From positions 1 through 64,000 of the IMG/VR virus record IMGVR_UViG_3300038300_000071: 64,000 nucleotides of DNA. One strand, 5' to 3'. The DNA is from a virus (lineage: Duplodnaviria > Caudoviricetes). Positions within the stretch are counted from its first letter, which is position 1. The number at the start of each line of letters is the position of its first letter. Positions 4,735-64,000 of this stretch are shown here, in pieces. A program made the position numbers and the translations under genes. Below the pieces are notes generated by a model that ran no database searches, had not been told where the DNA came from, and saw only the letters and a list, made by a program, of their open reading frames with translations.

Positions 4735-5454
4735 TTAATAATAGCCATTTCTCTCAATATCCCAGTCATTCTTGCTGCCGATATGTTTATTGCGACTTTG
4801 ATAAGGCGGAGCATTATTTGATTTTTTCCACCAGAAATGAAAATATTCTGCATGGCCATCTATAAATCCAACCCCATACCTTGGATCATTATTGCTATGC
4901 CATCTATTTACTTCATTCTCCCAATAGCGATTGTTGTAAACAGTTACAGGGAAGGTTGAAATCTTATAGTCTGGCCTATTAAAATGGGAAAGATATAACC
5001 CTGCATCTCCTCCATTTGGGCCAACATTTGTTACCTTTCCAATTCCACAGTGTTGTTGACTGGCATAAGTAACATTATAACTATTGCCAAATTTCTGCCA
5101 CACTGGTCTATCTTTAGACTGCATACTCTCGCCTTTATCAGAAGGGCAACGATTTACTTCCGCAGACATCTTTCCAAGATAAGGATATAAAGCTCTATCT
5201 TTTGTAGGAGTGTTATTCCACTTACCCGGCACTCCTGAATAATCAATATACCAAGGATGAACTGCCATAGCGTTGTTGTTTGAAGTTGCGTATTGAGCAA
5301 ATGCAGTTCCAATCTGTTTTTGGTTGCTCAAGCAGACGGCAATTCTTGCCTTTTCGCGGGCTTTGCTTAAGTTTGGAAGAAGGAGAGTTACTAATATGCC
5401 AATAATGGCAACAACAACAAGCAACTCGATTAAGGTGAAATAATTCGTTTTCAT
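4735..5454 (-). CDS. Prepilin-type N-terminal cleavage/methylation protein with C-terminal H-Xn-DGH motif (PVC type II secretion/pilin-like family)
   Basis: [49 protein letters not shown]...GFIDGHAE; SD AAGGAAG upstream on the minus strand. Confidence 0.9.
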
Positions 5455-5579
5455 AAGTGCTTCCTTGGTAATGAGATAATGTTATAAAAATCAACTAACT
5501 ATATATATATTATTATATATAAAAAATAAATTCAACCAGAGGTTTTTAAAAATAAATCCTTTATTTCCTTAAATATGGA

Positions 5580-5607
5580 TTGACATTGCTTTGTTTTATG
5601 CTAGATT
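5580..5607 (+). promoter_or_regulatory. Sigma70-type promoter
   Basis: TTGACA, 16-nt spacer ending TGC, then TAGATT (extended -10), upstream of ORF 5637. Confidence 0.55.
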
Positions 5608-5636
5608 GAATGACTTAATAAAACAAAGGATTTAGC

Positions 5637-6305
5637 ATGAAAAATAAATTTACTCTTATAGAACTTTTAGTAGTTGTTGCAATAATGGGCATTCTCATGT
5701 CAATGTTGCTGCCTGAGCTTTCTAAAGCTCGGATGGCATCTTACAATACAGTTTGCATAAACAACTTAGGCCAGACTGCCAAAATTCATCATATGTTTGC
5801 TGATGACAATAAAGAAAGGCCTGTAGGGATAACCACTGGCTACAATTTTTACTTTGTGGGGGATAATTTTGGAGAAGACAGAGCATCACACAGGAAAAAT
5901 AGGCCTCTAACTCCTTATTACAAAGACAACTACACGGCTGGAGATGAGATAAATGCATTACGCTGTCCAACTGAGTCTGTAATCTATGATCAGTATGGAA
6001 CATCGTATTCAACCAATATGGGATACTTCAATGGGCATTGGGGAAACAACACTAACGATTTCAGCCCTACTCTTTCTTTAAGTTCTGCTAAAAATCCGTC
6101 AAGAATGGTGTTAGTTGAAGAGCTGCAGGCTTACTGGAGAATATCTGGAAGAGTTGAAACTCAGAATAAATACAAATCACACTTTTATAAAAAAGACAGA
6201 GTTAATTTAGCTTTCACAGATGGTCATGTTGACTCTCAAGTGCAAGTTGGATATGGATCTAAGAATACAGAAGAATATACTTTTGATAATGAATATGGAA
6301 TGTAG
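5637..6305 (+). CDS. Prepilin-type N-terminal cleavage/methylation protein with H-Xn-DGH motif
   Basis: [32 protein letters not shown]...CINNLGQ, CPT, H...NLAFTDGHV. Confidence 0.9.
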   Translation: MKNKFTLIELLVVVAIMGILMSMLLPELSKARMASYNTVCINNLGQTAKIHHMFADDNKERPVGITTGYNFYFVGDNFGEDRASHRKNRPLTPYYKDNYTAGDEINALRCPTESVIYDQYGTSYSTNMGYFNGHWGNNTNDFSPTLSLSSAKNPSRMVLVEELQAYWRISGRVETQNKYKSHFYKKDRVNLAFTDGHVDSQVQVGYGSKNTEEYTFDNEYGM

Positions 6306-10743: not shown

Positions 10744-12210
10744 GTGGATAATAATACAGAAGAAAAGAATGCAGAGCTTTTATTAGGACAGTTTTTCAAA
10801 AACACAATCTTTGAAAACAAGATATTCTCAGTCGGTGGCTTTGTTAGAGATGAAATAATGGGACTGAAGTCTAAAGATCTAGATTTAGTTGTTAGCTCTG
10901 ATGGCGGTTCTGAGGAAGTTGTACATGCCCTCAAAAGTCAACTTACTAACTCTGTCACCAATCCTCACAATCTTGGCAATGGCTTTCCAATTTGGCAGAT
11001 AACTTTTACTGACAACGTTCATTTCAACAATACTGAATGGAAAGTAAAAGGAGCAATTTTAGAATTTGCCGACACTCAAAAGGAATCCTTTCCTGATCAA
11101 GAATCAAGACAACGTATAACATCTTTTGGAACATTGGAGGAAGATGTTCTTAGACGTGACTTCACTTGCAACATGCTTATGAGAAATATTACCAATGGTG
11201 AAATTTTAGATTTGGCAAATGGCATTGAAGATATCAAAAATGGAATATTGCGTTCACATCCAAAAGCCGACTTTGATAAAATACTATCAGATGATCCACT
11301 TAGAATGCTAAGGCTTGTTAGATTTCAAGCTAAATTTGGATGGGAGATAAGATGGTCTGATCTTGAAGTTGTAATACGAAACAGAGAAAGAATAAAGATT
11401 ATTTCTGCTGAGCGTATCAATGCGGAGCTTACTAAAATAATGGAAATGGGAAAACTTGATAAGGCTGTCTGGTTTATGAAAAGAACTGGATTGCTTGAAA
11501 TCATTTTTCCTGAAGTTCATGCAATGATTGGTGTATTTCATGATTTAAAACAGCCTTTCCATAAAGAGTGCAAAGGAGAAGTGTTTGGACATGTTATGAA
11601 AGTATTAAGCCACGCTAAACCTGGAGTCATTCCTCAAATGTCAGCATTGCTACATGATATAGGAAAACCTCCAACTAGAGCGGAAGATGAGAATGGAAGA
11701 ATTAGATTTTCAAAACATGAGCCTGTTGGTGCTGAAATGGCAGAAGTGGTTCTAAGAAGGATAAAGTTTGACACTTCAACTATCAAAAGGATTGTCAAGT
11801 TGGTTGAAATGCATACAGATCCTCACGCTTTTGGAAGAAATAACGTTGGCGTTGAACCTTCAATCAAAGCAGTTAGAAAGCTTATCAGAAAGGCTGGGGA
11901 TGCATTGGAAGATTTGTTAGATCTTGCAGAAGCAGATTGCTTGGGAAATGAGCCTCTTCGAAATAATGTTCCTGACTTAAGAATTCGAATTAAGGAAGTT
12001 TTGGAAATTTCACCTCCAATTATTGCCAAGCCTATTTTAAACGGACATGAAGTTATGTCTATTCTAAATATTAAAGGCGGACAGATCATAGGAGAAATAA
12101 GAAAAGCTCTTATTGACTTGGAAGATGATTTCGCAAATGATGAGAAAGAATTGACCAAAGAAATAGCTGAGGAGTTTGTAAGGAACTTTAAACAGGATGG
12201 TGAGGGATGA
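10744..12210 (+). CDS. cca: CCA tRNA nucleotidyltransferase with HD domain (class II NTase)
   Basis: VGGFVRD, KDLDL, EEDVLRRDFTCN, DDPLRMLRLVRF, SAERINAEL, LLHDIGKP. Confidence 0.9.
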   Translation: MDNNTEEKNAELLLGQFFKNTIFENKIFSVGGFVRDEIMGLKSKDLDLVVSSDGGSEEVVHALKSQLTNSVTNPHNLGNGFPIWQITFTDNVHFNNTEWKVKGAILEFADTQKESFPDQESRQRITSFGTLEEDVLRRDFTCNMLMRNITNGEILDLANGIEDIKNGILRSHPKADFDKILSDDPLRMLRLVRFQAKFGWEIRWSDLEVVIRNRERIKIISAERINAELTKIMEMGKLDKAVWFMKRTGLLEIIFPEVHAMIGVFHDLKQPFHKECKGEVFGHVMKVLSHAKPGVIPQMSALLHDIGKPPTRAEDENGRIRFSKHEPVGAEMAEVVLRRIKFDTSTIKRIVKLVEMHTDPHAFGRNNVGVEPSIKAVRKLIRKAGDALEDLLDLAEADCLGNEPLRNNVPDLRIRIKEVLEISPPIIAKPILNGHEVMSILNIKGGQIIGEIRKALIDLEDDFANDEKELTKEIAEEFVRNFKQDGEG

Positions 12211-50968: not shown

Positions 50969-51558
50969 TAACGGTTATTACCCCCACGTACAAGAGGCCA
51001 AAAGATATAATAGAGAGGGCTGTAGGCTCTCTCAGGGCTCAAACGTATGTAAAGTGGAATCAGATAATATGTTCTGATGGAAGAGCTGAGGAAGTGCCTA
51101 GAAGGATAGCCGAGTCGGAAGAGAACAAACATCGAGTAAGTTATACAAATTCAAGCAAGAGTTATAATGACTATGGGCCGGGTGTAAGGGCCGAGATGCT
51201 GGAGAGAGTTGACACTGAGTATGTTTGTTTCCTTGATGATGATAATATCCTAATGCCTACTTATCTTGAAAAAATGATAAAGGCGATAGAGGATGATGGG
51301 GTTGATTTGGCAATTTGTCATTGTCTTCATTATGGGCCTCTTCCTCGAAGTTTCGGCAAAGCTCCAAAGATAGTAACTGGAATGCCTCCAAAGCTTTATA
51401 ATATTGATACTATACAGATAGTATGTAAGACTGAAGCGATTAGGGATATTGGCTGGCAAACAGAGAGTGGATATTACGCTGACGGAGTTACTTATGAGAA
51501 GTTGGCAGAGAAGTATAAATATGTAGAAGTTCCAGAAGTGTTGGCACTCCATTTGTAG
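50965..51558 (+). CDS. Glycosyltransferase family 2
   Basis: VITPTYKR, SL.AQTY, SDG, YVCFLDDDN. Confidence 0.88.
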   Translation: MITVITPTYKRPKDIIERAVGSLRAQTYVKWNQIICSDGRAEEVPRRIAESEENKHRVSYTNSSKSYNDYGPGVRAEMLERVDTEYVCFLDDDNILMPTYLEKMIKAIEDDGVDLAICHCLHYGPLPRSFGKAPKIVTGMPPKLYNIDTIQIVCKTEAIRDIGWQTESGYYADGVTYEKLAEKYKYVEVPEVLALHL

Positions 51559-51619
51559 GGATATATTTTAATATTTTTTTAATATTTTTTCCCATTGTAA
51601 ATGGAATTAGGAGCAATAA

Positions 51620-52378
51620 ATGAGTATTATTAGTTTTGAGAAGGATTTCTTCGTAGAGGTCATCAAAGGTAATGTGTCAGGGCACTCAATGGTCAATAAA
51701 TTTGGATATAACCTATCCATAGACACAGGTTCAGTCCCTGAGGATGTTTGGAACGGCGGAGGTTTATATGCTGCGTTTAACGCAACAGCAGCAGAGATTG
51801 TCGAGGTGTTTTCATCTGATGCTGCGGATGATTCAGCGGGTACTGGGGCGCGGACAGTGGATTTGTTCGGGCTAGATGGTAGTTATAATGAAACATCAGA
51901 AACTGTTATTCTTGATGGAGTTACGCCAGTTAACACAGTTAATTCTTATTTAAGGCTAGATAGAGCTATTGTTATTACGGCGGGTACTGGCGGCTCTAAT
52001 GCTGGAGTCATAACAGCTCGGCAGAGTGTGACAACCGCAAATGTCTTCACGGCCATTCCGATTTCCCGCAATCAAACAAATATAGCAGCCTATACCATTC
52101 CAGCGGGAAAAACGGGCTATTTATATTCTCTTGGGGTAACGGTGTCGAAGGCTACAGATACTGAAGCCCAGTTTGATCTTTTTGTTAGACCATTCGGGGA
52201 AGTGTTTCAAGGCAAAGATCCAGGTGTGGCATCAAAGGCTGGTGGACAATACATTCGAAACACTCACCCGTGGCTTGAGATTACTGAAAAGTCTGACATT
52301 GTTGTCAGAGTTAGTTCAGTAGGAGCTAACGGTACTCAGGTTGACGCAAACTTCGCTATACTATTAGTTGACAATTAA
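51620..52378 (+). CDS. Putative virion structural protein
   Basis: DF..EV..G.V.G.S.VNKFG.N, TGART...GLD, AAYTIPAGKTGY motifs common in phage structural ORFs. Confidence 0.55.
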   Translation: MSIISFEKDFFVEVIKGNVSGHSMVNKFGYNLSIDTGSVPEDVWNGGGLYAAFNATAAEIVEVFSSDAADDSAGTGARTVDLFGLDGSYNETSETVILDGVTPVNTVNSYLRLDRAIVITAGTGGSNAGVITARQSVTTANVFTAIPISRNQTNIAAYTIPAGKTGYLYSLGVTVSKATDTEAQFDLFVRPFGEVFQGKDPGVASKAGGQYIRNTHPWLEITEKSDIVVRVSSVGANGTQVDANFAILLVDN

Positions 52379-52441
52379 AGAATGCGAAGTAGTCGTAAGA
52401 ACAAATGATGTGTGAGTATGAATAAATATTTAAAAAGTTAC

Positions 52442-52470
52442 TTGACATGTAGGCAATTAAGAAGTATATT
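52442..52470 (+). promoter_or_regulatory. Sigma70 promoter of tRNA cluster 1
   Basis: TTGACA-17 nt-TATATT. Confidence 0.85.
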
Positions 52471-52513
52471 TGTGTTATAAGATTTAAAAACAATTTAAAA
52501 AGAGAAAGAAAAA

Positions 52514-52591
52514 ATGTTTAACAAGATTACAGCGATTGAACCTAAAGGGCCGGAAGCGATTAAGCTTTCAGGGCTAGGTGCGTTGCTGTAG
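52514..52591 (+). CDS. Putative attenuator leader peptide 1 (MFNKITAIEPKGPEAIKLSGLGALL)
   Basis: 25 codons; codons 7-17 are all A/I/E/P/K/G, matching the downstream tRNAs; contains the antiterminator segment 52564-52575. Confidence 0.8.
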   Translation: MFNKITAIEPKGPEAIKLSGLGALL

Positions 52592-52620
52592 TGATTTAAA
52601 AAACATTAGTAACAATCTTT

Positions 52621-52659
52621 AAAAGCCCTGAAAGCGTAAAAGCTCTCAGGGCTTTTTTT
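52621..52659 (+). terminator. Attenuator terminator upstream of tRNA cluster 1
   Basis: AGCCCTGAAAGC/GCTCTCAGGGCT stem plus T7; the 5' arm is perfectly complementary to 52564-52575. Confidence 0.88.
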
Positions 52660-52673
52660 ATGTAAAAATTTAA

Positions 52674-52747
52674 CTGTGTGTATGTCAGTCTGGTAGACAA
52701 CTCCCCTTGGATGGGAGAAGCCGTTCGTTCAAATCGAACCACACAGA
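52674..52747 (+). tRNA. tRNA-Pro(TGG), with A37
   Basis: CTGTGTG/CACACAG acceptor, CTCCC-CTTGGAT-GGGAG, TTCAAAT T loop. Confidence 0.85.
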
Positions 52748-52758
52748 CTTTTTAAATT

Positions 52759-52832
52759 GGGGAATTAGCTCATTTGGCTAGAGCGCTGCCTTTGCAAGGC
52801 AGAGGTAACGAGTTCGAACCTCGTATTCTCCA
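52759..52832 (+). tRNA. tRNA-Ala(TGC)
   Basis: GGGGAAT/ATTCTCC (G3:U70), CTGCC-TTTGCAA-GGCAG. Confidence 0.93.
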
Positions 52833-52927
52833 CTGGTTGGTTTGAGTTTCAGTTAGTATTTTCTGTTCTCATGTAGACAAAAATGGAAAAATGAAGGAAA
52901 GGCAACCTTTTGAAAAAATGTCTATAT

Positions 52928-53002
52928 GCTACGATATGCAAATTAGTTAAGCAGCTTTTCTGATAAAGAAGTGATTTTCAGGTGCAAGTCCTGATCGTAG
53001 TA
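52928..53002 (+). tRNA. tRNA-Ile(GAT)
   Basis: GCTACGA/TCGTAGT, CTTTT-CTGATAA-AGAAG, atypical T loop TGCAAGT. Confidence 0.78.
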
Positions 53003-53008
53003 CTTTAA

Positions 53009-53079
53009 GTCTCTATGGTGTAATGGTAGCACAAGCGGTTTTCATCCGCTAGGACTCGGATCGTAACCGTGTAGAGGTA
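53009..53079 (+). tRNA. tRNA-Glu(TTC)
   Basis: GTCTCTA/TAGAGGT, AGCGG-TTTTCAT-CCGCT, atypical T loop ATCGTAA. Confidence 0.78.
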
Positions 53080-53161
53080 TTTTAAGAAATAAAAGATGAA
53101 GTATTTAAGAGTTAGATGTAGATTTTAAAAAAAGTGATTGTATAGTAGTTCAAGTAATTAA

Positions 53162-53235
53162 CGGAATGTAGCGCAGTCTGGTAGCGCGTCTCGTTTGGGA
53201 CGAGAAGGTCGCAGGTTCGATCCCTGTCATTCCGA
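53162..53235 (+). tRNA. tRNA-Pro(TGG), second copy
   Basis: CGGAATG/CATTCCG, TCTCG-TTTGGGA-CGAGA. Confidence 0.93.
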
Positions 53236-53297
53236 TTTTTTAAAAAGAAAATAATAGGACGCAAGTGGGTTCTGAAATATGATAGGGATTTGGTAAA

Positions 53298-53963
53298 ATG
53301 GTAAAGAATTTAAATTTTGTAGTTTTAGCTTTAATTTTGGTTGTTTCTTTTGGTTGTGAGACTTTAGTGAAGAGGAGTTCTCTGGGGTCTTATGAAAAAG
53401 TTCTTTCATGGGGAGAAAGCGAAAAATTATATTATAGTAATTATAATTTTGTATATGTTGAGAGAGGAAAGAGTCATACGTTTGATGGAGTGAGTCGTGT
53501 TTATGATGCGGAGTTGATTGGATCAAGACAGGGAGAGAATTTAACTGTTTCCGAAGTTAGAGTCTTCTACAGAGATAAGTCCAAGTCATTTAAAGTAAAC
53601 AGGCCCGTTCTGAGTTTTGGAAATACTAAAGAGAATGGATATGGAGATAAGATTAAGACAGGCGGAATGCATTACATGTCGGCTGGATATCTTGATGATC
53701 TTTTGGCAGATGTTGGCAGATATAGGAAGTTGCTTGCGGGCAGTTATGAGCATTCTTCTGGCGCTAAAATAGTCCTAGATGAGAATGGAGAGGGTGTTTC
53801 TGGGAGTGAGAAGATTTTATTGTCAAATCAGTTTGGAAGGTCTGATCTTGTACTTACGAATGGACAAAGAAATCTTCCAGTTTTATCATTTGATGAAGGC
53901 GGCATGGTTCTTGGAAACGAGAAACATAAAATAGTTTTCAAGAAGATTAATGTTAAAAAATAA
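53298..53963 (+). CDS. Putative lipoprotein within the tRNA cluster
   Basis: Signal peptide with a lipobox-like VSFGC. Confidence 0.55.
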   Translation: MVKNLNFVVLALILVVSFGCETLVKRSSLGSYEKVLSWGESEKLYYSNYNFVYVERGKSHTFDGVSRVYDAELIGSRQGENLTVSEVRVFYRDKSKSFKVNRPVLSFGNTKENGYGDKIKTGGMHYMSAGYLDDLLADVGRYRKLLAGSYEHSSGAKIVLDENGEGVSGSEKILLSNQFGRSDLVLTNGQRNLPVLSFDEGGMVLGNEKHKIVFKKINVKK

Positions 53964-53977
53964 GATTTATGATTGTT

Positions 53978-54097
53978 GATCATGCTGCGGTATGGTCGCA
54001 CTTTGATGACATGGCAATTTCGCTACCGCATCAAAGATCGAATTGGATAGCGGTATCCGATTTGACGGAATTGAGCAACTGCCGAAAAGGGTGCTCA
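53978..54097 (+). ncRNA. Candidate structured ncRNA (pseudoknot plus two hairpins)
   Basis: TGCGGTA/TACCGCA and CTTTGA/TCAAAG in A-B-A'-B' order; AATTGGATA/TATCCGATT; TGAGCA/TGCTCA. Confidence 0.45.
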
Positions 54098-54100
54098 CAA

Positions 54101-54216
54101 CAGTGTATGGCTGATATTGGTTAGGCTCGTCGATATTTATGATTACTAAATACACATTTAATGTGGCGGTGATTTCTATGATCTTCGATATTTGGGTTCG
54201 ATTCCCGAAACACTGA
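54101..54216 (+). ncRNA. tRNA-like RNA with an extended anticodon arm
   Basis: CAGTGT/ACACTG acceptor, D-arm with TGGTTA, TTGGG-TTCGATT-CCCGA T arm; about 60-nt hairpin replaces the anticodon arm. Confidence 0.6.
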
Positions 54217-54242
54217 TAGTTTTGAAAAGAAGAGTAGTATAT

Positions 54243-54314
54243 GCGAAAGTAGCTCAATGGTAGAGCACCATCCTTCCAAGTTGGTTGTTGCGGGTTCGAG
54301 TCCCGTCTTTCGCT
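54243..54314 (+). tRNA. tRNA-Gly(TCC)
   Basis: GCGAAAG/CTTTCGC, loop CTTCCAA, U73. Confidence 0.92.
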
Positions 54315-54342
54315 TTTAGAATTATAAATTGGAGAATCCATA

Positions 54343-55064
54343 ATGGGAATATTTTATTCATATTGCACAAGATGCAATAAACAACTTAGGTATTTTATTG
54401 AGTATGGTCATGATGGAATCGAGTGTGATGTATGTTCTCATTTCAATATCGATAGTGATGTAAAGGGAACACTTTTTAAATATAACAATGGCAGGCCGGA
54501 TGGCGCATTGAATATATGGGGAGAAGAAATAATGGAAAGTAAAATGAAACGAAAGATAAAACATAGCATTTAAAGCCTTCTAAGTTGGGGAGGCAAAAAT
54601 TAATGCCTCCGTAGCTCAGTTGGTTAGAGCATCTGACTTTTAATCAGAATGTCATGGGTTCGAATCCCATCGGGGGCACTTTCAAAAGGGAGACGTTCGT
54701 GAACAACATAGATTATTTAAGAGAAGATTTAGCTCGGATTCTAGATAAGAGCAGTAGTCTGAGTTGTGAGTTTCTAAGTGCAGTTCTTGAGTTGAATATT
54801 ATGCGAAGAGAATTTAAAGTTTCGATGGGATCTAATTTTGATGGATTCTTGACAATAGGGTATAAAGAAGTATATAAATAAAAACAAAGAGGAAATAACA
54901 TGGTTTACAGTTTTAATTTTAGTGCGGAAGATGAAGTAGACGTAATTCAAGTTTTGGAAACTAAAAATGGATACGTTTACTTTCAAGATGGTGATAGAAA
55001 GGGAAGAATAGAAGAAAAGTTCTTTGCGATGAACTTTACCCATGTTGAAGCTCCACTGGTATAA
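54343..55064 (+). CDS. Small ORFs between tRNAs (54343-54573; 54699-54881 with GTG start; about 54900-55064)
   Basis: SD sites; the first two carry the DG.L.I motif. Confidence 0.55.
54605..54678 (+). tRNA. tRNA-Lys(TTT)
   Basis: GCCTCCG/CGGGGGC, TCTGA-CTTTTAA-TCAGA. Confidence 0.93.
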
Positions 55065-55082
55065 TAAAAAGAAACAATATAT

Positions 55083-55118
55083 AAAAAGGACTTACTTTAA
55101 ATAGTAAGTCCTTTTTTT
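55083..55118 (+). terminator. Intrinsic terminator, probable end of tRNA operon 1
   Basis: AAGGACTTACT/AGTAAGTCCTT stem plus T run. Confidence 0.75.
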
Positions 55119-55141
55119 GTATAGTAATTATAAAATATACT

Positions 55142-55678
55142 ATGGTGGAAGAAATGTCGGTTCGTAAAGTAATATGGTTAACGGGAATGTCTGGTGCGGG
55201 AAAATCAACTATATCTTCAATGCTTGAAGAGAAGCTTTTGGTTAAAGGGTATAGTGTGAAAATACTAGATGGAGATGAAGTCAGGGAAAATCTAACTTCT
55301 GATCTTGGCTTTAGCAAGAAGGACAGAGATGAAAATGTAAAAAGAATTTCTTATGTGGCTAAATGTATATGCGATGTTGACGGGGTGGCCATAGTTGCTG
55401 CTATTTCTCCATACAAGGATGCAAGGCAGAAGGCTATATCTTTAATTGGTGAAGATAACTTTTTAGGAGTTTTTGTCAAGTGTGATATTGATACGCTGAT
55501 AAGCAGAGATGTTAAGGGTTTGTATGAAAAGGCTATTCGTGGTGACATTCCAAATTTCACAGGAATAAGCGATCCTTATGAAGATCCTTTAGGTTTTGAA
55601 GTTGTTTGTAATACAGCGGTAGAGACTATTGAAGAATCGGCAAACAAGATAATCAAGAAGTTGGAAGGTAAATCCTAA
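55142..55678 (+). CDS. cysC: Adenylyl-sulfate kinase
   Basis: WLTGMSGAGKST, LDGDEVR, LGFSKKDRDEN, ISPY, RDVKGLY, FTGISDPYE. Confidence 0.96.
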   Translation: MVEEMSVRKVIWLTGMSGAGKSTISSMLEEKLLVKGYSVKILDGDEVRENLTSDLGFSKKDRDENVKRISYVAKCICDVDGVAIVAAISPYKDARQKAISLIGEDNFLGVFVKCDIDTLISRDVKGLYEKAIRGDIPNFTGISDPYEDPLGFEVVCNTAVETIEESANKIIKKLEGKS

Positions 55679-55981
55679 GTTTTTTTATATTCTAGCCGTA
55701 TGTAAACAGCTAGGGTCTAAAGATGTCAAGAAAAGTTATCATAAGTCTTTTTAAGTGCAGGCTAGATTGCAATCCTTTTGAGACGATAGAGAATAAGCCA
55801 GACGGGGCGTTGATGATATGGGGATTGAGCAGCATTCCAAGCTGTTATGATTTTCAGAATTATTTAGATTATATCAGAGATGCAATCGATATGAATAAAT
55901 CAAAGTAAAATTCTTCTTTAAAAATTATATTTCTTTTATAAAATTCATATTAGTAAATAAATGCTAACGTGGAGTTTTTAA

Positions 55982-56980
55982 ATGGGATATATCAAGAATC
56001 CTTCTGATAATGGTCAGTTTTGGAGAGAATCAGCGGCTAATGATAGCGCCTCTGTTTGGCATGGTTTTGATAGTAAAAATAACGGTAAAGACAAATTTTT
56101 CAAATCAGAAACATTGCCAAATAATCCAGATACCTTGAAAGAAACTGGAACTGTTTCTTCTAGTGGCGATAGGCTGTTGGCTGGTGTTTATGGAGATATT
56201 CCAAGTGTTTCTCTTTGGACTCCTGAGTCTATTATTACTGACGTTTGGTTTGATGCTTCTGATTCTAGCACCATTACTGAAATTGGGGGCCGAGTTAGTC
56301 AGTTGGATGACAAGAGTAATAATGCTGTACCTCAGAATATTGCTCAAGGGGTTGGATCGGAGCAGCCACAGACAGGAGTTGACACTTTAAATGGTTTGAA
56401 TGTGCTTACATTCGATGAGGCTTTCGATGAGGGTTTACAAAAGAATGGATGGGATAACATCGGTAAAGCGGGTAGTTTTTCTGTCTTTACTGTTGGGAAG
56501 ATGACGTCGAGTACAAATGGAAGCTTCCTAAACCTTCAAGATGATATGCATACTTACAGAAATAGATTTGATCCATATGGAAAGAGAACGTCGAGCAGTG
56601 TTCCAAAGTCCGTCAGTTATACAGAGCCAAGCTCGGCATACATTCTTAACGGAAATGCAAGATATGATGTGAGTCACACACTTCCTGACAGTTATTTCAA
56701 CGTTTTCATAAATGGTACACAAGAGGGTGTTAATGCCTTCTTCGACAATCCATTGCCAGAGAATGCCCCCAGTCCAAGGCTTGCAATGATGACTGCCAAC
56801 AATCCTGCCATTACAAATAGTGGAATAGTTGCAGAAGTTATAATCACCGAGGATATTGATGAAGTGTCTAGACAGAGAGTGGAAGGCTATTTGGCTTGGA
56901 AGTGGGGATTGGTAGACAGTCTTCCATCTAATCACCCTTATAAAAATAAACCTCCATACATTACTAGCGGAAACTTATAG
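55982..56980 (+). CDS. Lectin-like cassette gene 1 (constant N-terminus plus variable LamG/ConA-like domain)
   Basis: MGYIKNPSDNGQ.WRESAA...KSETLPN, then WFDASD...EGYLAWKWG. Confidence 0.8.
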   Translation: MGYIKNPSDNGQFWRESAANDSASVWHGFDSKNNGKDKFFKSETLPNNPDTLKETGTVSSSGDRLLAGVYGDIPSVSLWTPESIITDVWFDASDSSTITEIGGRVSQLDDKSNNAVPQNIAQGVGSEQPQTGVDTLNGLNVLTFDEAFDEGLQKNGWDNIGKAGSFSVFTVGKMTSSTNGSFLNLQDDMHTYRNRFDPYGKRTSSSVPKSVSYTEPSSAYILNGNARYDVSHTLPDSYFNVFINGTQEGVNAFFDNPLPENAPSPRLAMMTANNPAITNSGIVAEVIITEDIDEVSRQRVEGYLAWKWGLVDSLPSNHPYKNKPPYITSGNL

Positions 56981-57043
56981 AGATTAGAGATATTTCTTTT
57001 ATAAAATTCATATTGGTAAATAAATGCTAATATGGAGATTCAA

Positions 57044-57985
57044 ATGGGATATATCAAGAATCCTTCTGATAATGGTCAGTTTTGGAGAGAATCAGCGGCT
57101 AATGACAGCGCTTCTGTTTGGCATGGTTTTGATAGTAAGAATAATGGTAAAGACAAATTTTTCAAATCAGAAACATTGCCAAATAATACAAAGGCTTTAA
57201 GTGAGTCTGGGTCTATTGCTTCTAGTGGTAATAGATTAATTGCTGGGGTTTATGGAGATCAAGCTTCTCTTCCTGCAAGTCTTTGGAATCCTTCTCTGAT
57301 GACATCTGTGGGTTGGTACGATGCTGATGATAGTTCTACAATTACAGAGTCTGCTGGAGCTATTAGCCAATGGGATGATAAGTCTGGGAATGACAATCAT
57401 GCTGTTCAGGGCGTTGGAAGCAAACAGCCAATTTACAATGCAAGTGATCCCGTGTTCGGTGGAAAGCCTTCCATATTGGGCGTTTTGGGTGATTATTTAG
57501 AAACTCCATCTATGTCAATAAATAGAATGTATTTAACTTTATATTTGGACGGTGTGGCAACGGCATGGCCAAATCATAATGCGGTAGTATCAGGGCCTTC
57601 TTTCCGTTTAACGGGTAGAGTTGGTGATGTTCACGTATGGGATGGCCCTAGAGACAATAAGAATTTTGATTTTAATGGAAGTACATTTAGGGATGGAAGT
57701 ACTGTTGATGTTAATTACGATCCAACTGGTTTGCCGATGGCGGGTGACATCTTTAGGATAAACGCTGAAAGCACAAAGACTCAAGTTTGGAGGTTGATGG
57801 GGAATACTCAAACATATACAACTTGGCATGGTGGTTTGGCAGAGGTGATATTTACAGACGGATCAGAGGATTTCAACACACAGCAAAAAATAGAAGGTTA
57901 CCTTGCTTGGAAGTGGGGATTTGTGGACAAGTTTCCAGCTGAGCATCCTTACAAGTCAGCTCCTCCATATATAGATGCTTATTAA
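57044..57985 (+). CDS. Lectin-like cassette gene 2
   Basis: Same architecture; start aligned to the paralogs. Confidence 0.8.
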   Translation: MGYIKNPSDNGQFWRESAANDSASVWHGFDSKNNGKDKFFKSETLPNNTKALSESGSIASSGNRLIAGVYGDQASLPASLWNPSLMTSVGWYDADDSSTITESAGAISQWDDKSGNDNHAVQGVGSKQPIYNASDPVFGGKPSILGVLGDYLETPSMSINRMYLTLYLDGVATAWPNHNAVVSGPSFRLTGRVGDVHVWDGPRDNKNFDFNGSTFRDGSTVDVNYDPTGLPMAGDIFRINAESTKTQVWRLMGNTQTYTTWHGGLAEVIFTDGSEDFNTQQKIEGYLAWKWGFVDKFPAEHPYKSAPPYIDAY

Positions 57986-58054
57986 GATCATTTAAAAATT
58001 ATATTTCTTTTATAAAATTCATGTTAGTAAATAAATGCTAATATGGAGATTTAA

Positions 58055-58996
58055 ATGGGATATATCAAGAATCCTTCTGACAATGGTCAGTCTTGGAGAG
58101 AATCAGCCGCTGATAATTCGGCTATCCGTTGGCATGGTTTCGATAGTAAGAATAATGGTAAAGACAAATTTTTCAAATCAGAAACATTACCAAATGATCC
58201 AGACGCACTTGTTGCTGCTGGAGTCAATGCTTCTAGCGGTGATAGACTATTGGCTGGTGTTTATGGAGATATTCCAAGTGTTAATCTTTGGACTCCTGCT
58301 GGAGTCGTTACAGAACTTTGGCTTGATGCCACCGATGCTTCAACTATTACAGAATTATCTGGATCTGTGAGTCAGTGGGATGATAAGAGTGGTAGCGGTA
58401 ACGACTTCCCTCAGGGAAATGCATCCAGACAACCTATAACGGGAGTAAGAACTCTCAATGGCCTAAATGTTCTCGATTTCGATGGTGGTGATAGCATGCA
58501 AAGAGGGAGTTTGGCGAATGTGGCGAATGACTTCATTATGGTAGGAGTTTGGGATGTAGATTCGGGCGCAACACTGTTTTCAGAAACAGGTTCTCCTCAG
58601 GCTTGGAATGCAACAACTGCTGGTCTCACTACGCAATTGGATGGCACTATGCTTTACTCTGGAGGCACGATAAGCGGAGCAACTGTCGTTTCTTTTGATA
58701 TGAATCCTACGGGCCTTAATGCAGAGGCTTTTGTAAACGGAGAAAGTCAGGCAATACTTGCTCTGACGCAAAGCCTTGGAAATAGTACTGCCCGTATAGC
58801 TGCGAACTTTGTTGGCGGTTCTAATGTAGTTGGAGGAATGGGTGAAATGGTTATCTCCGATGACCGATCAGTAGAAACTCGTCAAAAGATCGAAGGATAC
58901 TTGGCTTGGAAGTGGGGTACGGAATCTGATCTTCCAGTTGGACATCCGTATAAGAACAAACCTCCATATATCACTAGTGGAAGTTTATTAGTTTAA
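58055..58996 (+). CDS. Lectin-like cassette gene 3
   Basis: Same architecture. Confidence 0.8.
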   Translation: MGYIKNPSDNGQSWRESAADNSAIRWHGFDSKNNGKDKFFKSETLPNDPDALVAAGVNASSGDRLLAGVYGDIPSVNLWTPAGVVTELWLDATDASTITELSGSVSQWDDKSGSGNDFPQGNASRQPITGVRTLNGLNVLDFDGGDSMQRGSLANVANDFIMVGVWDVDSGATLFSETGSPQAWNATTAGLTTQLDGTMLYSGGTISGATVVSFDMNPTGLNAEAFVNGESQAILALTQSLGNSTARIAANFVGGSNVVGGMGEMVISDDRSVETRQKIEGYLAWKWGTESDLPVGHPYKNKPPYITSGSLLV

Positions 58997-59054
58997 AAGG
59001 ATATTTCTTTTATAAAATTCATGTTGGTAAATAAGTGCTAATATGGAGATTTAA

Positions 59055-59996
59055 ATGGGATATATCAAGAATCCTTCTGACAACGGACAGTTTTGGAGAG
59101 AATCAGCGGCCAATGATAGTGCTTCTGTTTGGCACGGTTTTGATAGTAAAAATAATGGTAAAGATAAATTTTTCAAATCAGAAACATTGCCAAATGATCC
59201 AAAATCTTTAATTGCATCTGGAGCTATTGCTTCTAGTGGCGATAGATTTTTAGCTGGTGTTTATGGTGATCTTCCAAAAGTTTCTCTTTGGACTCCTGCA
59301 AAAATAGCCACATCTCTTTGGCTGGATGCCTCTGATCCTGCTACAATAACTGAGTCGGTAGGATCGGTCAGTCAGTGGGATGATAAGTCTGGAAATGGTA
59401 ACAATGTAATACAAGCCTCAGGAGTCAATCAGCCAGAAACTGGAGTAAGAGATATTAATGGATTAAACGTTCTTGATTTTGATGGCTCGGACAGCATGAC
59501 AAGAGGGGCTTTGGCGAGCAGATCTGATGATTTCATTGTGGTTGGCGTTTGGTATGTGGATTTTGTTATTTCAAGTCGCAGGAAGAATACGATGTTCGCA
59601 CAATCTGGGATATCTCAAGATTGGAATATGACAACCTCCGATATAGTCTTGCAGAGTGATGGATCTGATGCTTATTCTGGAGGCGTTTTGGCTGGTGTTA
59701 GTAGTATTATTTCTTATGATGTTAATTTTTCTGGATTGAATACTGAGGCTTTTATTAATGGTTCCAGTGAAGCGAATGTTGTGATGTCTCAGTCAGTAGG
59801 AAATTCCACAACAAATATTGGCATAGGGTTTACCGCTTCGAATTTCAATTTTTTCGGAGGTATGGGAGAGATTATTATCTCTAACGATAGATCTGTATCA
59901 ACTCGTCAAAAAATAGAAGGCTATCTTGCTTGGAAGTGGGATCAAGTTTCCAAGCTTCCTGCTGATCATCCTTATAAGAATGTACCACCCTGTTGA
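59055..59996 (+). CDS. Lectin-like cassette gene 4
   Basis: Same architecture. Confidence 0.8.
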   Translation: MGYIKNPSDNGQFWRESAANDSASVWHGFDSKNNGKDKFFKSETLPNDPKSLIASGAIASSGDRFLAGVYGDLPKVSLWTPAKIATSLWLDASDPATITESVGSVSQWDDKSGNGNNVIQASGVNQPETGVRDINGLNVLDFDGSDSMTRGALASRSDDFIVVGVWYVDFVISSRRKNTMFAQSGISQDWNMTTSDIVLQSDGSDAYSGGVLAGVSSIISYDVNFSGLNTEAFINGSSEANVVMSQSVGNSTTNIGIGFTASNFNFFGGMGEIIISNDRSVSTRQKIEGYLAWKWDQVSKLPADHPYKNVPPC

Positions 59997-60041
59997 TGGT
60001 GGTTGACTGAATCTTTATAAATACTAACATGGAGTTTTTAA

Positions 60042-60986
60042 ATGGGATATATCAAGAATCCTTCTGACAATGGTCAGTCTTGGAGAGAATCAGCGGCCAA
60101 TGATAGCGCTTCTATCTGGCATGGTTTCGATAGTAAGAATAATGGTAAAGACAAATTCTTTAAATCAGAAACATTGCCCAATGGTACAAAGGCTTTAAGT
60201 GAGTCTGGGTCTATTGCTTCTAGTGGTAATAGATTATTAGCTGGTGTTTATGGTAATCAATCTTCACTTCCTGCAAGCCTTTGGACTCCTAACAATATAA
60301 CTACATCAGCTTGGTTTGATGCTTCTGATGCGTCAACTATCACAGAGTCTGCCAATAAAGTTTCTCAATGGGATGATAAAAGTGGAAATAGCAAACACGC
60401 TGTGCAAGCAACTGGATCTCAACAACCGACCTATAAGCCTACCGATGCTAATATGAATGGGATGGGTAGTATCGGAGTTACAAGTAATACTGGAGCGAAA
60501 GGATTAGAAGTACCATCATTCGGAGCGAAGATTTGCTATACAGTCATTAGAAATGACAACGCCAACTTCTCATCATTCGATGTGCTGCTTGCAGGTGCGC
60601 TTGATAGATACCTTGTTCGTGGTAGTTCAGGAACTCCAGACTTCTATACTATCGGAACTCTTGAGTTCAATGATTTTACATATAAGAATGGTTCCACGGT
60701 AAGCACGGCCTTAAACGTACTTCCAATGCCGACAGCAACGATTTTCAAATTTGAAAGTGCCGCAATAAGAGAGCAGACATGGAGTTTCGGGTTTGGTAAT
60801 CAATGGGCTGGCAATAATAGAACATGGGATGGTGCTTATTCAGAGTTTATATTTACAGATGGAACTGAGGACTTATCTACACAGCAAAAGATCGAAGGAT
60901 ACCTAGCTTGGAAATGGGGAACAGAAGCTTCATTGCCTGTTAGTCATCCTTACAAGTCAGCTCCTCCATATATAGATGCTTATTAA
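60042..60986 (+). CDS. Lectin-like cassette gene 5
   Basis: Same architecture. Confidence 0.8.
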   Translation: MGYIKNPSDNGQSWRESAANDSASIWHGFDSKNNGKDKFFKSETLPNGTKALSESGSIASSGNRLLAGVYGNQSSLPASLWTPNNITTSAWFDASDASTITESANKVSQWDDKSGNSKHAVQATGSQQPTYKPTDANMNGMGSIGVTSNTGAKGLEVPSFGAKICYTVIRNDNANFSSFDVLLAGALDRYLVRGSSGTPDFYTIGTLEFNDFTYKNGSTVSTALNVLPMPTATIFKFESAAIREQTWSFGFGNQWAGNNRTWDGAYSEFIFTDGTEDLSTQQKIEGYLAWKWGTEASLPVSHPYKSAPPYIDAY

Positions 60987-61044
60987 TAGGATATTTCTTT
61001 TATAACTTTGTATTAGTAAATAAATGCTAACGTGGAGATTTTAA

Positions 61045-62076
61045 ATGGGATATATCAAGAATCCTTCTGACAATGGTCAGTTTTGGAGAGAATCAGCGGC
61101 TAATGATAGCGCTTCTATCTGGCATGGTTTCGATAGTAAGAATAATGGTAAAGACAAATTTTTCAAATCAGAGACATTGCCAAATGATCCAGCCGCACTT
61201 TCTGCCGCTGGAGTTAATGCTTCCAATGGAGATAGATTTTTAGCTGGTGTTTATGGAGATCAGTCTTCACTTCCTGCAAGCCTTTGGAATCCCGCTGAAA
61301 TATCCACTGAAGCTTGGTTCGATGCCAATGATGCTTCAACTATTACAGAATCAGCAGGAGCTGTAAGTCAGTGGGATGACAAGTCTGGCAATGTAAGAAA
61401 TCTTATTAACGCAACTGGCGTTCAACAGCCAATGACTGGAATTAGAACAATAGGCGGTTTAAACGCCCTAGATGCCGACGGGGTTACTCAACACCTATAT
61501 AACATTACAAACTTTGCATTTCCTGCCAGTGGAAACTTTATGGTGTTTGCGGTTGCAGTAGTAGACTCTTGCAGTGACAGAAATCAAGCTATATGGGCTT
61601 GGGATGATGATGTTGATATACAACTTGATAGTGCGCAAAACATTAATGAGTTCAGAGGTCGATTGTTTAACACTGACCCGACAAATCAAAACTTGCTATA
61701 CTCAACTAGCGACCCTGCACCATCTGGCTCAGTTATCGGACTAGACACGATGTGGACTACGGTCATGGACTTCACCGCAACGGAGAGTCACTTATATCGG
61801 AACGGACTTAATAGTGTGCTTAATCCAACAAAACTATATGCTAACAAGGTAACTAGTACTGGATTGCAACAGTTTACTGCGTTTCTAGGTGGATTCCCTA
61901 TTGCGTTTACTCATTTGCTTGATGGCGCAATAGGAGAGTTGCTTATGGTAGAAGGAACTGACACTATTACTCAACAAAAGATGGAAGGCTATCTTGCTTG
62001 GAAGTGGGGACTAGTCGCTAAACTCCCATCTGGTCATCCTTACAAGTCAGCTCCTCCATATATAGATGCTTATTAA
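61045..62076 (+). CDS. Lectin-like cassette gene 6
   Basis: Same architecture. Confidence 0.8.
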   Translation: MGYIKNPSDNGQFWRESAANDSASIWHGFDSKNNGKDKFFKSETLPNDPAALSAAGVNASNGDRFLAGVYGDQSSLPASLWNPAEISTEAWFDANDASTITESAGAVSQWDDKSGNVRNLINATGVQQPMTGIRTIGGLNALDADGVTQHLYNITNFAFPASGNFMVFAVAVVDSCSDRNQAIWAWDDDVDIQLDSAQNINEFRGRLFNTDPTNQNLLYSTSDPAPSGSVIGLDTMWTTVMDFTATESHLYRNGLNSVLNPTKLYANKVTSTGLQQFTAFLGGFPIAFTHLLDGAIGELLMVEGTDTITQQKMEGYLAWKWGLVAKLPSGHPYKSAPPYIDAY

Positions 62077-62079
62077 TAG

Positions 62080-62221
62080 GATATTTCTTTTATAAAATTC
62101 GTATTAGTAAATAGCTTGGTACGACCCATCAGATGAGAGCACTATAACTGAATCGGCAGGAGCGGTATCTCAGCTTGATGATAAGAGTGGTAATGATTAC
62201 GACCTCGTTCAAGCTTCTGGA
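62080..62221 (+). pseudogene. Remnant of a seventh cassette
   Basis: Upstream element GATATTTCTTTTATAAAATTC.TATTAGTAAATA fused directly to AWYDPSDESTITESAGAVSQLDDKSGNDYDLVQASG (62114-62221); no start codon. Confidence 0.8.
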
Positions 62222-62277
62222 GAATTAGTCATTAAGTCTAGATTGAGAGAATAAGTGATAAAAACTCTAAAAAGAAC

Positions 62278-62306
62278 TTGCAATTAACTATTTATCATGG
62301 TATATT
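62278..62306 (+). promoter_or_regulatory. Sigma70 promoter of tRNA cluster 2
   Basis: TTGCAA-17 nt-TATATT with extended TG. Confidence 0.8.
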
Positions 62307-62362
62307 GGTTACACAGAAGAAAAAAGTATTATTAAAAACAATTTAAAAGAAAGAGATTTAAA

Positions 62363-62440
62363 ATGAAATTTTCAAGCTACAATTTAAGCAATTGTTCGAG
62401 TTACTTATATAGTAATTCGTATGATCCTGTGCTTAAATGA
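62363..62440 (+). CDS. Putative attenuator leader peptide 2 (MKFSSYNLSNCSSYLYSNSYDPVLK)
   Basis: 25 codons; codons 4-20 are all S/Y/N/L(TTA)/C, matching the downstream tRNAs. Confidence 0.85.
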   Translation: MKFSSYNLSNCSSYLYSNSYDPVLK

Positions 62441-62465
62441 GGTAGCAAATAATTTTAAATATTTG

Positions 62466-62506
62466 AATCCCCTTTTGAGCTAATCACTCAGAAGGGGATT
62501 TTTTTT
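62466..62506 (+). terminator. Attenuator terminator upstream of tRNA cluster 2
   Basis: AATCCCCTTTTGAG/CTCAGAAGGGGATT 14-bp stem plus T run. Confidence 0.88.
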
Positions 62507-62519
62507 GTTTGGATTTTAT

Positions 62520-62609
62520 GGAGATAGTCCGGCATGGACGAGGACACTGTTTTGAAAGCAGCTGCGCACTAATACGGCGTCGAGGGTTCGATTCCCTCTG
62601 TCTCCGCCA
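62520..62609 (+). tRNA. tRNA-Ser(TGA), with encoded CCA
   Basis: GGAGATA/TGTCTCC-G-CCA, loop TTTGAAA, long variable arm. Confidence 0.88.
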
Positions 62610-62641
62610 TTTTTAAAAGATAGGAAAGTAAGAAGTTAAAT

Positions 62642-62714
62642 GAACAATTGGCCGATTGGATATAGGCGCAGGATTGCAAACCCTGTTAGGCGAGTTCGAT
62701 TCTCGCATTGTTCT
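62642..62714 (+). tRNA. tRNA-Cys(GCA)
   Basis: GAACAAT/ATTGTTC, loop TTGCAAA, U73. Confidence 0.88.
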
Positions 62715-62718
62715 CTAA

Positions 62719-62808
62719 GGAATGGTATAACGAAATTGGTATCGTCGCTGGTTGCTAACCAGTTCAGCAGGTTAAATGGCTGTGTGGGTTCGAGTCCCAC
62801 TCATTCCG
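62719..62808 (+). tRNA. tRNA-Ser(GCT)
   Basis: GGAATGG/TCATTCC-G, loop TTGCTAA, long variable arm. Confidence 0.9.
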
Positions 62809-62828
62809 CTTTAATGAAGAAGTTTGAA

Positions 62829-62905
62829 GTGTATATTTGTCCAAGGTGGCGATATGTTACGCATTGTAGTTCAGGAACTAGGTTCGAGTCCTAGCTTATA
62901 TGCAC
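62829..62905 (+). ncRNA. Atypical tRNA-like element (possible CAT anticodon; non-canonical geometry)
   Basis: GTGTATAT/ATATGCAC stem, CTAGG-TTCGAGT-CCTAG T arm, irregular D and anticodon arms. Confidence 0.45.
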
Positions 62906-62913
62906 TTTTTTTT

Positions 62914-62986
62914 GATGGAGTAACCAAATTGGTATTGGTCTTGCCTGTTAAGCAAGTATGAGTGAGTTCGATTCTCATCTCCATCT
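62914..62986 (+). tRNA. tRNA-Asn(GTT)
   Basis: GATGGAG/CTCCATC, CTTGC-CTGTTAA-GCAAG; unusual U discriminator. Confidence 0.8.
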
Positions 62987-62990
62987 TTTT

Positions 62991-63062
62991 AGGCGTGTAT
63001 CTCAATGGTAGAGACTTCGGTTGTTACCCGAAAGGTTGCTGGTTCGAGTCCAGCCGTGCCTG
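62991..63062 (+). tRNA. tRNA-Asn(GTT), second copy
   Basis: AGGCGTG/CGTGCCT-G, TTCGG-TTGTTAC-CCGAA. Confidence 0.88.
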
Positions 63063-63078
63063 TTGTTAGTAAGAATAA

Positions 63079-63160
63079 GCCGCTGTGGGGGAATTGGCAT
63101 ACCCGACGAGTTTAAGCCTCGTTGCCTTTGTGCATGAGAGTTCGAATCTCTCCAGCGGTA
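63079..63160 (+). tRNA. tRNA-Leu(TAA)
   Basis: GCCGCTG/CAGCGGT-A, ACGAG-TTTAAGC-CTCGT, long variable arm. Confidence 0.9.
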
Positions 63161-63167
63161 TTAACAT

Positions 63168-63241
63168 AGCTCTGTAGCCGAATTGGCATAGGCGGCAGTC
63201 TCAAAAACTGTAATTTACAGGTTCGAGTCCTGTCAGAGCTA
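63168..63241 (+). tRNA. tRNA with CAA anticodon (Leu) and short variable loop
   Basis: AGCTCTG/CAGAGCT-A, GCAGT-CTCAAAA-ACTGT, variable loop AATTT. Confidence 0.8.
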
Positions 63242-63245
63242 CTAT

Positions 63246-63320
63246 GTATTCATAGCTTAATGGTAAAGCGCAGTAGCAAATTGTATGAGCAAGATGTTGG
63301 TTCGATTCCAGCTGAATACG
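63246..63320 (+). pseudogene. tRNA-like element with intact acceptor, D and T arms but no anticodon stem
   Basis: GTATTCA/TGAATAC, GCTT-AATGGT-AAAGC, GTTGG-TTCGATT-CCAGC. Confidence 0.6.
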
Positions 63321-63339
63321 TTAATGGAAATAAATATAA

Positions 63340-63421
63340 GTCGTCGTATATGTCTAAGGAGGACATCCAGTCTGTAAAACTGGCGCTTTGAGCTCGGTGG
63401 GATCGTTACCCACAGGCGACA
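63340..63421 (+). tRNA. tRNA-Tyr(GTA)
   Basis: CCAGT-CTGTAAA-ACTGG, long variable arm, T loop ATCGTTA, A73. Confidence 0.8.
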
Positions 63422-63425
63422 TTTT

Positions 63426-63470
63426 AAAAAAACTCTTTTAGTCTGATATAATAGGCTGAAAGAGTTTTTT
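63426..63470 (+). terminator. Terminator closing tRNA operon 2
   Basis: AAACTCTTTTAGTCT/AGGCTGAAAGAGTTT stem plus T run. Confidence 0.7.
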
Positions 63471-64000
63471 ATGGATTACAGACATGAGCGAAGGAACGGG
63501 AGCGTGTAATGGAAAATATACTTAAAGGGTTGCATGAGAAAGATCCTGCAAACAGGGTTGAATTTTCTTGTTTGAATAAGAATAAAGTTTTATGTTGGAT
63601 ATGCTATAAGGACGGCAAGAGGATTTTATCTGGATGCGAATCGGGAAAGAATCACAAAGAGGCCTTGGAAAATACAATGAATAACTTAAAAGAATAAGGA
63701 TTGTTATGACTAATTCTACAGCGAAGTATCCTTTTATTCCAGAGTCAGCGGAAGGAAGAGTTGTTAATATTACTTGGACGGATGACGATGAATTTAAAAT
63801 GTTTGGAAAGTATAAGTGGAAGAATGGCGAAACTAAAACGATCAAGACGGAAGAGTGGTGGGTGGTTAGAAATGATGTTCACGGAAGATCTACTCTGTAT
63901 AATTCTAGTCATGGAAGTGATAACTCGAATTCATTTACGACTGAGAACGGGATTACGGTAAGAGTTCAAATGAACAATGATTATCTTCAAGTTGGAGAGA

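Follow-up and report, generated by a model that had tools for sequence, protein, structure and literature searches.

The genome of a tailed phage deposited as IMG/VR record IMGVR_UViG_3300038300_000071 (Duplodnaviria; Caudoviricetes) has a length of 202,452 base pairs (bp) and a G+C content of 37%, and encodes a terminase, a portal protein, GroEL, a DnaE-type polymerase and a CCA-adding enzyme. The window analyzed here corresponds to its first 64 kilobases (kb; 64,000 nucleotides, nt) and contains, at positions 62278-63470, a single transcription unit composed of a promoter, a short leader open reading frame (ORF), an intrinsic terminator, about ten transfer RNA (tRNA) genes and a closing terminator, all on the plus strand. 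The leader is the sole protein gene of this unit, and only tRNA genes are found between the first terminator, hereafter the attenuator terminator, and the closing one. An initial annotation of this locus had proposed a leader-peptide attenuator controlling a phage tRNA array; the promoter, the 25-codon ORF, the terminator and the downstream tRNAs on which it relied are all present at essentially the positions that it gave.

The promoter (62278-62306) is of the sigma-70 type (TTGCAA-17-TATATT, with a TG extension) and is followed by a purine-rich, weak Shine-Dalgarno-like element (GAGA; 62350-62356) located 6 nt before the ATG of the leader ORF (62363-62440), which comprises 25 codons and a TGA stop codon. 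Its codons 4-20 (62372-62422), referred to below as the sensor block, specify Ser seven times, Tyr four times, Asn three times, Leu twice and Cys once. Region 1 (62376-62390) lies inside the sensor block and pairs with region 2 (62431-62452) in a leader hairpin, and region 2, which spans the stop codon, is also the 5' strand of a putative antiterminator. The attenuator terminator (62465-62511) is formed by a 15-bp stem (62465-62501, regions 3 and 4; -22.2 kcal/mol) and a run of T residues separated by 10 nt from the first tRNA gene, at 62520.

The array starts with a tRNA-Ser (TGA; 62520-62609), called by ARAGORN at default settings, and includes a tRNA-Cys (GCA; 62642-62715), another tRNA-Ser (GCT; 62719-62809), two tRNA-Asn (GTT; 62914-62986 and 62990-63063) and a tRNA-Leu (TAA; 63079-63160), each retrieved by ARAGORN at default settings and by Rfam. 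The initial annotation had listed Ser, Cys, Asn, Leu and Tyr acceptors, the last of which is a probable tRNA-Tyr (GTA; 63343-63421) called by ARAGORN at a relaxed threshold only and without an Rfam match. Three more tRNA-like genes complete the array as it was first described: a weak element whose anticodon is CAT and whose acceptor stem is poor, with a run of eight T after it (62829-62903; ARAGORN at the 80% threshold only, no Rfam match), a 75-nt tRNA with a CAA anticodon (63168-63242; ARAGORN default, Rfam), and a tRNA of uncertain identity (63246-63320; 47 bits with Rfam, GCA with A at position 33 at a relaxed ARAGORN threshold). The CAA-anticodon tRNA is devoid of the long variable arm that would be expected of a tRNA-Leu. 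The closing terminator (63427-63470) consists of a 19-bp hairpin and a U-run (-21.5 kcal/mol, z = -6.9).

The layout of promoter, leader, terminator and tRNAs occurs four times in the genome, with starts at 52442, 62278, 68141 and 78338 (units 1 to 4 hereafter, the unit under study being unit 2), and the four tRNA clusters together cover all 20 amino acids. The promoter motif TTG[AC][AC]A-N14-16-GTATA[CTA]T has four occurrences on the two strands of the 202-kb genome, one before each tRNA leader. Every leader ORF is preceded by a GAG-containing purine tract located 9-15 nt upstream of its ATG.

The content of the leaders follows that of the arrays. Under strict wobble rules, all 17 codons of the leader 2 sensor block are readable by the Ser, Cys, Asn, Leu and Tyr tRNAs of their own unit, which confirms the count first reported for them. 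Over the whole leader, 17 of the 24 codons are matched, for a background of 0.196 corresponding to the share of phage codons read by the cluster (binomial tail 8e-8), and this leader is the best match to any tRNA cluster among the 1,198 ATG ORFs of 20-35 codons present in the genome; the four leaders rank 1, 2, 4 and 7 among these ORFs. Leader 2 has only 1-2 codons matched by the other clusters. The corresponding values for its own and for the other clusters are 14 and 0-5 for leader 1 (binomial tail 2e-3), 16 and 1-2 for leader 3 (1.5e-6), and 15 and 1-5 for leader 4 (2.9e-6). In the resulting table of four leaders by four clusters, the true pairing gathers 62 matched codons and the next-best permutation 43.

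When the peptides were held fixed and synonymous codons were redrawn from the phage's own usage, 48.1 matched codons were expected across leaders and 60 were observed, a value reached by none of 20,000 resamplings; the match therefore operates at the level of isoacceptors. The Ile codon is ATT in leader 1, whose cluster has a GAT tRNA, and ATA in leader 3, whose cluster has a CAT tRNA; similarly, Leu is encoded by TTA in leader 2 (TAA tRNA) and by CTA or CTT in leader 4 (TAG tRNA). Serine is specified in leader 2 by TCA/TCG and AGC/AGT only, TCT, the commonest Ser codon of the phage, being avoided. The isoacceptor match claimed for this leader thus holds for both Ser boxes, and the accompanying statement that Leu appears only as TTA fails outside the sensor block, where codon 24 is a CTT.

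The RNA elements expected of an attenuator accompany these codons. The terminator stem is 15 bp long in every unit, with an energy of -21.7 to -22.2 kcal/mol; the terminators end 2-44 nt from the first tRNA, and no promoter-like site was found between terminator and first tRNA in any of the four units, so that the tRNAs would be made only by read-through. Transcription from a promoter downstream of the terminator had been named as an outcome that would contradict the proposal, and the interval between T-run and first tRNA in unit 2 leaves no room for one. A hairpin within the leader ORF is present in each unit (z = -4.85, -5.37, -2.89 and -3.93 for leaders 1 to 4; none of 200 shuffles as stable in each case) and reaches -26.4 kcal/mol in leader 2. 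Its 3' strand, region 2, is complementary to the 5' arm of the terminator in every leader. With arms extended by a few bases, the antiterminator duplexes of leaders 1 to 4 have energies of -23.8, -14.9, -12.4 and -16.6 kcal/mol, reached by 0, 1, 59 and 10 of 2,000 dinucleotide shuffles, respectively. In leader 2, the pairing associates 62431-62452 with 62460-62480; the imperfect pairing pointed out initially is therefore real, and longer than described.

The influence of a ribosome was approached by folding transcripts ended before the 3' arm of the terminator with a 30-nt ribosome footprint masked. In leader 2, the antiterminator forms with the aminoacyl (A) site on codons 4-14, and is absent from the masked folds with a ribosome at the end of the ORF as well as from those without ribosome, a comparison that the initial annotation had suggested. 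Leader 3 shows the same pattern, as does leader 1, except that a 10-bp antiterminator pairing returns with the A site on the stop codon. In leaders 1-3, no pairing has a lower energy than the antiterminator while the sensor codons are masked by the footprint.

The stop codon is located in or beside region 2 in leaders 2-4 (inside it in leader 2, at 62438-62440), and the distance from stop codon to terminator stem is 22-30 nt in all four leaders, 24 nt in leader 2. In E. coli, a ribosome at a stop codon ceased to interfere with a terminator placed 28 bp past it, which gave about 90% termination, as opposed to less than 10% for one placed 5 bp past it (PMC4824070). The stop-to-terminator geometry of the phage units is that of the trp, his and ilv attenuators, and a ribosome at the stop codon of leader 2 would be expected, at this distance, to cover region 2 and to leave the terminator free.

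Taken from sequence, these characteristics make it likely that 62278-63470 is a ribosome-mediated, leader-peptide transcription attenuator of the trp/ilv style having tRNA genes as its output, and that the phage probably makes each tRNA set only while ribosomes decode the matching codons slowly. Each prediction of the initial proposal that could be tested at the sequence level was borne out. We infer that the leader is translated and that stalling on it decides a kinetic competition between RNA structures, in the following manner. Host RNA polymerase would start at the promoter and transcribe the 25-codon leader ORF. If decoding is fast, the ribosome would reach the stop codon and cover region 2, and the terminator would form; with no ribosome, the leader hairpin would keep region 2 paired with region 1, and the terminator would form as well. 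In either case transcription would end 10 nt before the first tRNA. A shortage of cognate charged tRNA would make any sensor codon slow, so that the ribosome would stall on region 1 and leave region 2 to pair with the 5' arm of the terminator; no terminator would then form and the tRNA genes would be transcribed. Once made, the tRNAs would let the leader be decoded faster and thereby switch the unit off again, a negative feedback matching tRNA supply to demand. The three sister units would act likewise for other amino acids, the four of them covering all 20.

As to the trigger and purpose of such a device, slow decoding could result from a codon-usage mismatch, from the loss of host tRNAs after shut-off, or from cleavage by anticodon nucleases. 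An inducible answer to host anticodon nucleases, the role put forward in the initial annotation, is compatible with the data and can be offered only as speculation.

Multivalent leader-peptide attenuators are familiar from the amino-acid operons of enterobacteria, where the ilvGMEDA leader contains Ile, Val and Leu codons and where trpL, hisL, pheL, thrL and leuL act in their respective operons. The E. coli pheST attenuator, with its pheM leader, regulates a synthetase and senses a single amino acid. To our knowledge, leader-peptide attenuation is described for amino-acid biosynthesis and synthetase genes and not for tRNA genes. A full-text literature search likewise retrieved no paper, on phages or on cells, in which tRNA genes are controlled by leader-peptide attenuation, in agreement with the statement of the initial annotation that no such case was known for phage tRNA arrays. 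For the enterobacterial type, the pheL leader-peptide attenuator can serve as a reference (PMC3082878).

The phage units share with the attenuators of the ilvGMEDA type the succession of a promoter, a short ORF rich in regulatory codons, the alternative 1:2, 2:3 and 3:4 hairpins and, immediately ahead of the genes, an intrinsic terminator; as in the ilv leader, one leader would sense several amino acids, and the stop codon is within or beside region 2. They differ from these systems by their putative output, which is tRNA genes instead of biosynthetic enzymes or aminoacyl-tRNA synthetases, by being phage-borne and occurring as four units of a single genome, each leader taking a share of the 20 amino acids, and by the lack of sequence match to the Rfam leader families. 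Since the sensed molecule and the product would be of the same kind, and the product itself would set the speed at which the sensor codons are decoded, the feedback on tRNA supply would be direct. The likeness to pheM-pheST resides in the leader-peptide attenuation of a component of the translation apparatus with the supply of charged tRNA as the signal, the phage units again differing in that tRNA genes are regulated. T-box riboswitches also let the status of a tRNA set the choice between terminator and antiterminator upstream of translation-related genes; however, they recognize uncharged tRNA by direct binding, with a single specifier codon, and do not need translation, whereas the phage leader presents 17 in-frame codons within an ORF that has its start and stop codons. 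An Rfam cmscan of 51000-64000 at E <= 1 returned tRNAs and chance matches only, with no amino-acid leader family and no T-box (RF00230), and a T-box or another leader known to Rfam was ruled out on this ground.

No close relative of the phage was found in the collections searched. Megablast and blastn comparisons of the unit with 50,697 phage records gave scattered tRNA matches only, the flanking proteins led to no syntenic relatives in IMG/VR, the promoter pattern had no match there, and the scan of one metagenome returned a single 4-kb contig without tRNAs. More distant relatives were reached through the large terminase, and the evidence for a wider distribution comes from three of them, all IMG/VR contigs. 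Two (L044 and L045) have a terminase 51-54% identical to that of the phage and one leader each, heading an array with tRNAs for Phe, Leu, Ser, Val, Leu, Ser, Asn, Cys, Tyr and Ser. In the sensor blocks, 16 of 16 and 17 of 17 codons specify one of those seven amino acids, although the two leader peptides differ from each other at most positions. Relative to leader 2, both have gained Phe and Val codons, as the arrays that they precede hold Phe and Val tRNAs; in the present phage these tRNAs belong to operons other than the second, and it is the leaders of those operons that carry Phe or Val codons. Both contigs retain the in-ORF hairpin, the hairpin with its U-run and, where the ORF ends, a G-rich stretch complementary to the arm of the terminator.

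The third relative, a contig of 411,618 bp (411-kb relative hereafter), has three more codon-matched leaders (p = 6e-14, 2e-7 and 2e-7), located before tRNA blocks at L074:14055, L074:11302 and L073:15532. Their codons correspond to Glu/Gln/Arg (the leader with p = 6e-14), to Trp/Cys/Gly/Val/Ala/Thr and to Leu/Ser. When the nine leader-array pairs of the phage and its relatives were permuted, the true pairing scored 5.81 for a permutation mean of 2.17, and only the identity and the swap of two identical arrays reached 5.81. Leaders in related phages thus follow the content of their arrays, as the initial annotation had predicted for an attenuator.

T5 and Vibrio phage 2.275.O also have large tRNA sets, interspersed with promoters and terminators; unlike the present phage, neither showed a codon-matched leader with the same scanner (in T5, the best of 81 candidates has p = 2e-3). 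Four further terminase relatives (G014, G015, G017 and G011) had no leader at p < 1e-3, and fragments G004, G006 and G007 contain lone CAT tRNAs only. These negative results indicate that the design is not universal and that it is not an artefact of the scanner. One more terminase relative, the 255,236-bp IMG/VR contig G010, has at L082:1016 a candidate ORF of 58 codons (p = 6e-6), many of them for Met, Ser, Arg, Thr and Gly, that precedes tRNAs for Thr, Gly, Arg, Pro, Met and Glu and may represent a longer leader.

A slight balance of probability favours the broader view that large phages of several lineages have a modular, demand-sensing tRNA supply, in which each tRNA operon would be gated by its own multivalent leader, all 20 amino acids would be sampled, and the tRNAs whose codons are read slowly would be topped up. 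These would be the first tRNA genes placed under leader-peptide attenuation, and a regulatory class missed by annotation, since leaders that are unannotated small ORFs make it invisible to standard pipelines. If attenuation of the tRNA units is confirmed, it would explain how phages with full tRNA sets avoid needless tRNA production, would provide a built-in read-out of the host tRNAs that become limiting during infection, and would connect the units, in a way open to testing, with host defences that target tRNAs. The four units also constitute a natural four-by-four specificity matrix for experiments, and their leaders could be used as compact, codon-programmable sensors.

Several observations weigh against the attenuator interpretation. 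The Shine-Dalgarno-like element of the leaders is weaker than the AAGGA/AGGAG of the phage's long genes, and four sensor codons of leader 2 depend on the Tyr tRNA at 63343-63421, a weak prediction. With the bare 15-nt arm, the antiterminator of leader 2 has only -5.6 kcal/mol, a value reached by 151 of 1,000 shuffles and not significant, and its significance came after a post hoc widening of the arms. The shortened folds of leader 2 also show the terminator arm paired with the 5' untranslated region, and in leader 4 the antiterminator forms by default without a ribosome, being lost once a ribosome is at the last codons. Full-leader thermodynamic folds always favour the terminator, so that the switch has to be kinetic, and tight coupling of transcription and translation in the host is an assumption of the mechanism. 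Finally, the three leaders of the 411-kb relative are not followed by an obvious hairpin with a U-run, and one of them stops 14 nt before the first tRNA.

The constant advantage of the terminator in thermodynamic folds would also suit a timing switch, in which a phage factor, either an antiterminator protein or a modified RNA polymerase, overrides the terminators at a fixed time and the leader is no decoding sensor. In each of the four units, a strong terminator does separate the tRNAs from their only promoter, and the private promoter class of these units is compatible with programmed timing. Such a switch, however, leaves unexplained the cluster-specific and synonymous-codon-specific match, the leader hairpins with their antiterminator complementarity, and the covariation of leaders and arrays in the relatives, and no antiterminator gene was identified; we regard it as improbable. 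Marginally less probable still is a decoding sensor acting by another route, with the stalled ribosome setting Rho access, ribonuclease cleavage or the stability of the precursor. The leaders of the 411-kb relative speak for it, as they indicate that termination is not indispensable to the action of such a leader, and codon-matched leaders may work through more than one mechanism. On the other hand, a canonical hairpin with a U-run and a competing antiterminator accompany every leader of the present genome and of the two other relatives. That the ORF arose by chance, or that it specifies a small peptide having a function of its own, and that the terminator belongs to upstream genes, is very unlikely in spite of the short length and weak Shine-Dalgarno-like element of the ORF: the terminator lies downstream of both promoter and ORF, four replicates each match their own cluster only (combined chance <1e-18), and the peptides of the relatives diverge while their amino-acid alphabet is kept. 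Both components of this last explanation, a terminator of an upstream gene and a functional small peptide, were accordingly rejected. Leader-peptide attenuation remains preferred to these alternatives because they explain less of the data.

Unit 1 is also contained in the window and is preceded by its promoter at 52442-52470. Its leader ORF (52514-52591, 25 codons) has 13 of the 14 codons at positions 4-17 specifying Lys, Ile, Ala, Glu, Pro or Gly, and its antiterminator strand (52564-52575) is an exact 12-mer reverse complement of the terminator arm at 52624-52635. The terminator and its T-run (52621-52663) end 10 nt upstream of tRNA-Pro, the first gene of a cluster (52674-54679) that comprises Pro, Ala, Ile-GAT, Glu, Pro, Gly-TCC and Lys tRNAs with two interspersed ORFs; all these features are on the plus strand. 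Within this cluster, the interval 53969-54216 ends with a tRNA T-arm-like sequence (54196-54215) in which no intact tRNA was called, and may correspond to a decayed or interrupted tRNA; leader 1 has a single Thr codon without a match. Outside the window, a stand-alone tRNA is found at genome positions 85860-85946 (L005:1860-1946), with a CTA, amber-reading anticodon (reported as 'Pyl' by ARAGORN), a long variable arm and no leader before it.

The CCA-adding enzyme is a tRNA nucleotidyltransferase with a PolyA_pol head and an HD domain, encoded at 10858-12210, so that the phage also carries an enzyme for the repair or maturation of tRNA 3' ends. Among the neighbouring genes, Pfam and NCBIfam scans revealed no tRNA-repair context besides it. 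Between tRNA operons 1 and 2 are located a gene for adenylyl-sulfate (APS) kinase (55142-55678) and six tandem paralogous genes (55982-62076) encoding proteins of 313-343 amino acids without Pfam match. The N-terminal ~47 residues and a C-terminal motif are invariant among these paralogues and their middles are variable, with a mean column identity of 57%; they may be interchangeable receptor-binding or surface proteins. A divergent gene pair at 4735-6305 displays prepilin-type N-terminal methylation domains and weak matches to a Verrucomicrobia cassette protein, which may hint at the host lineage.

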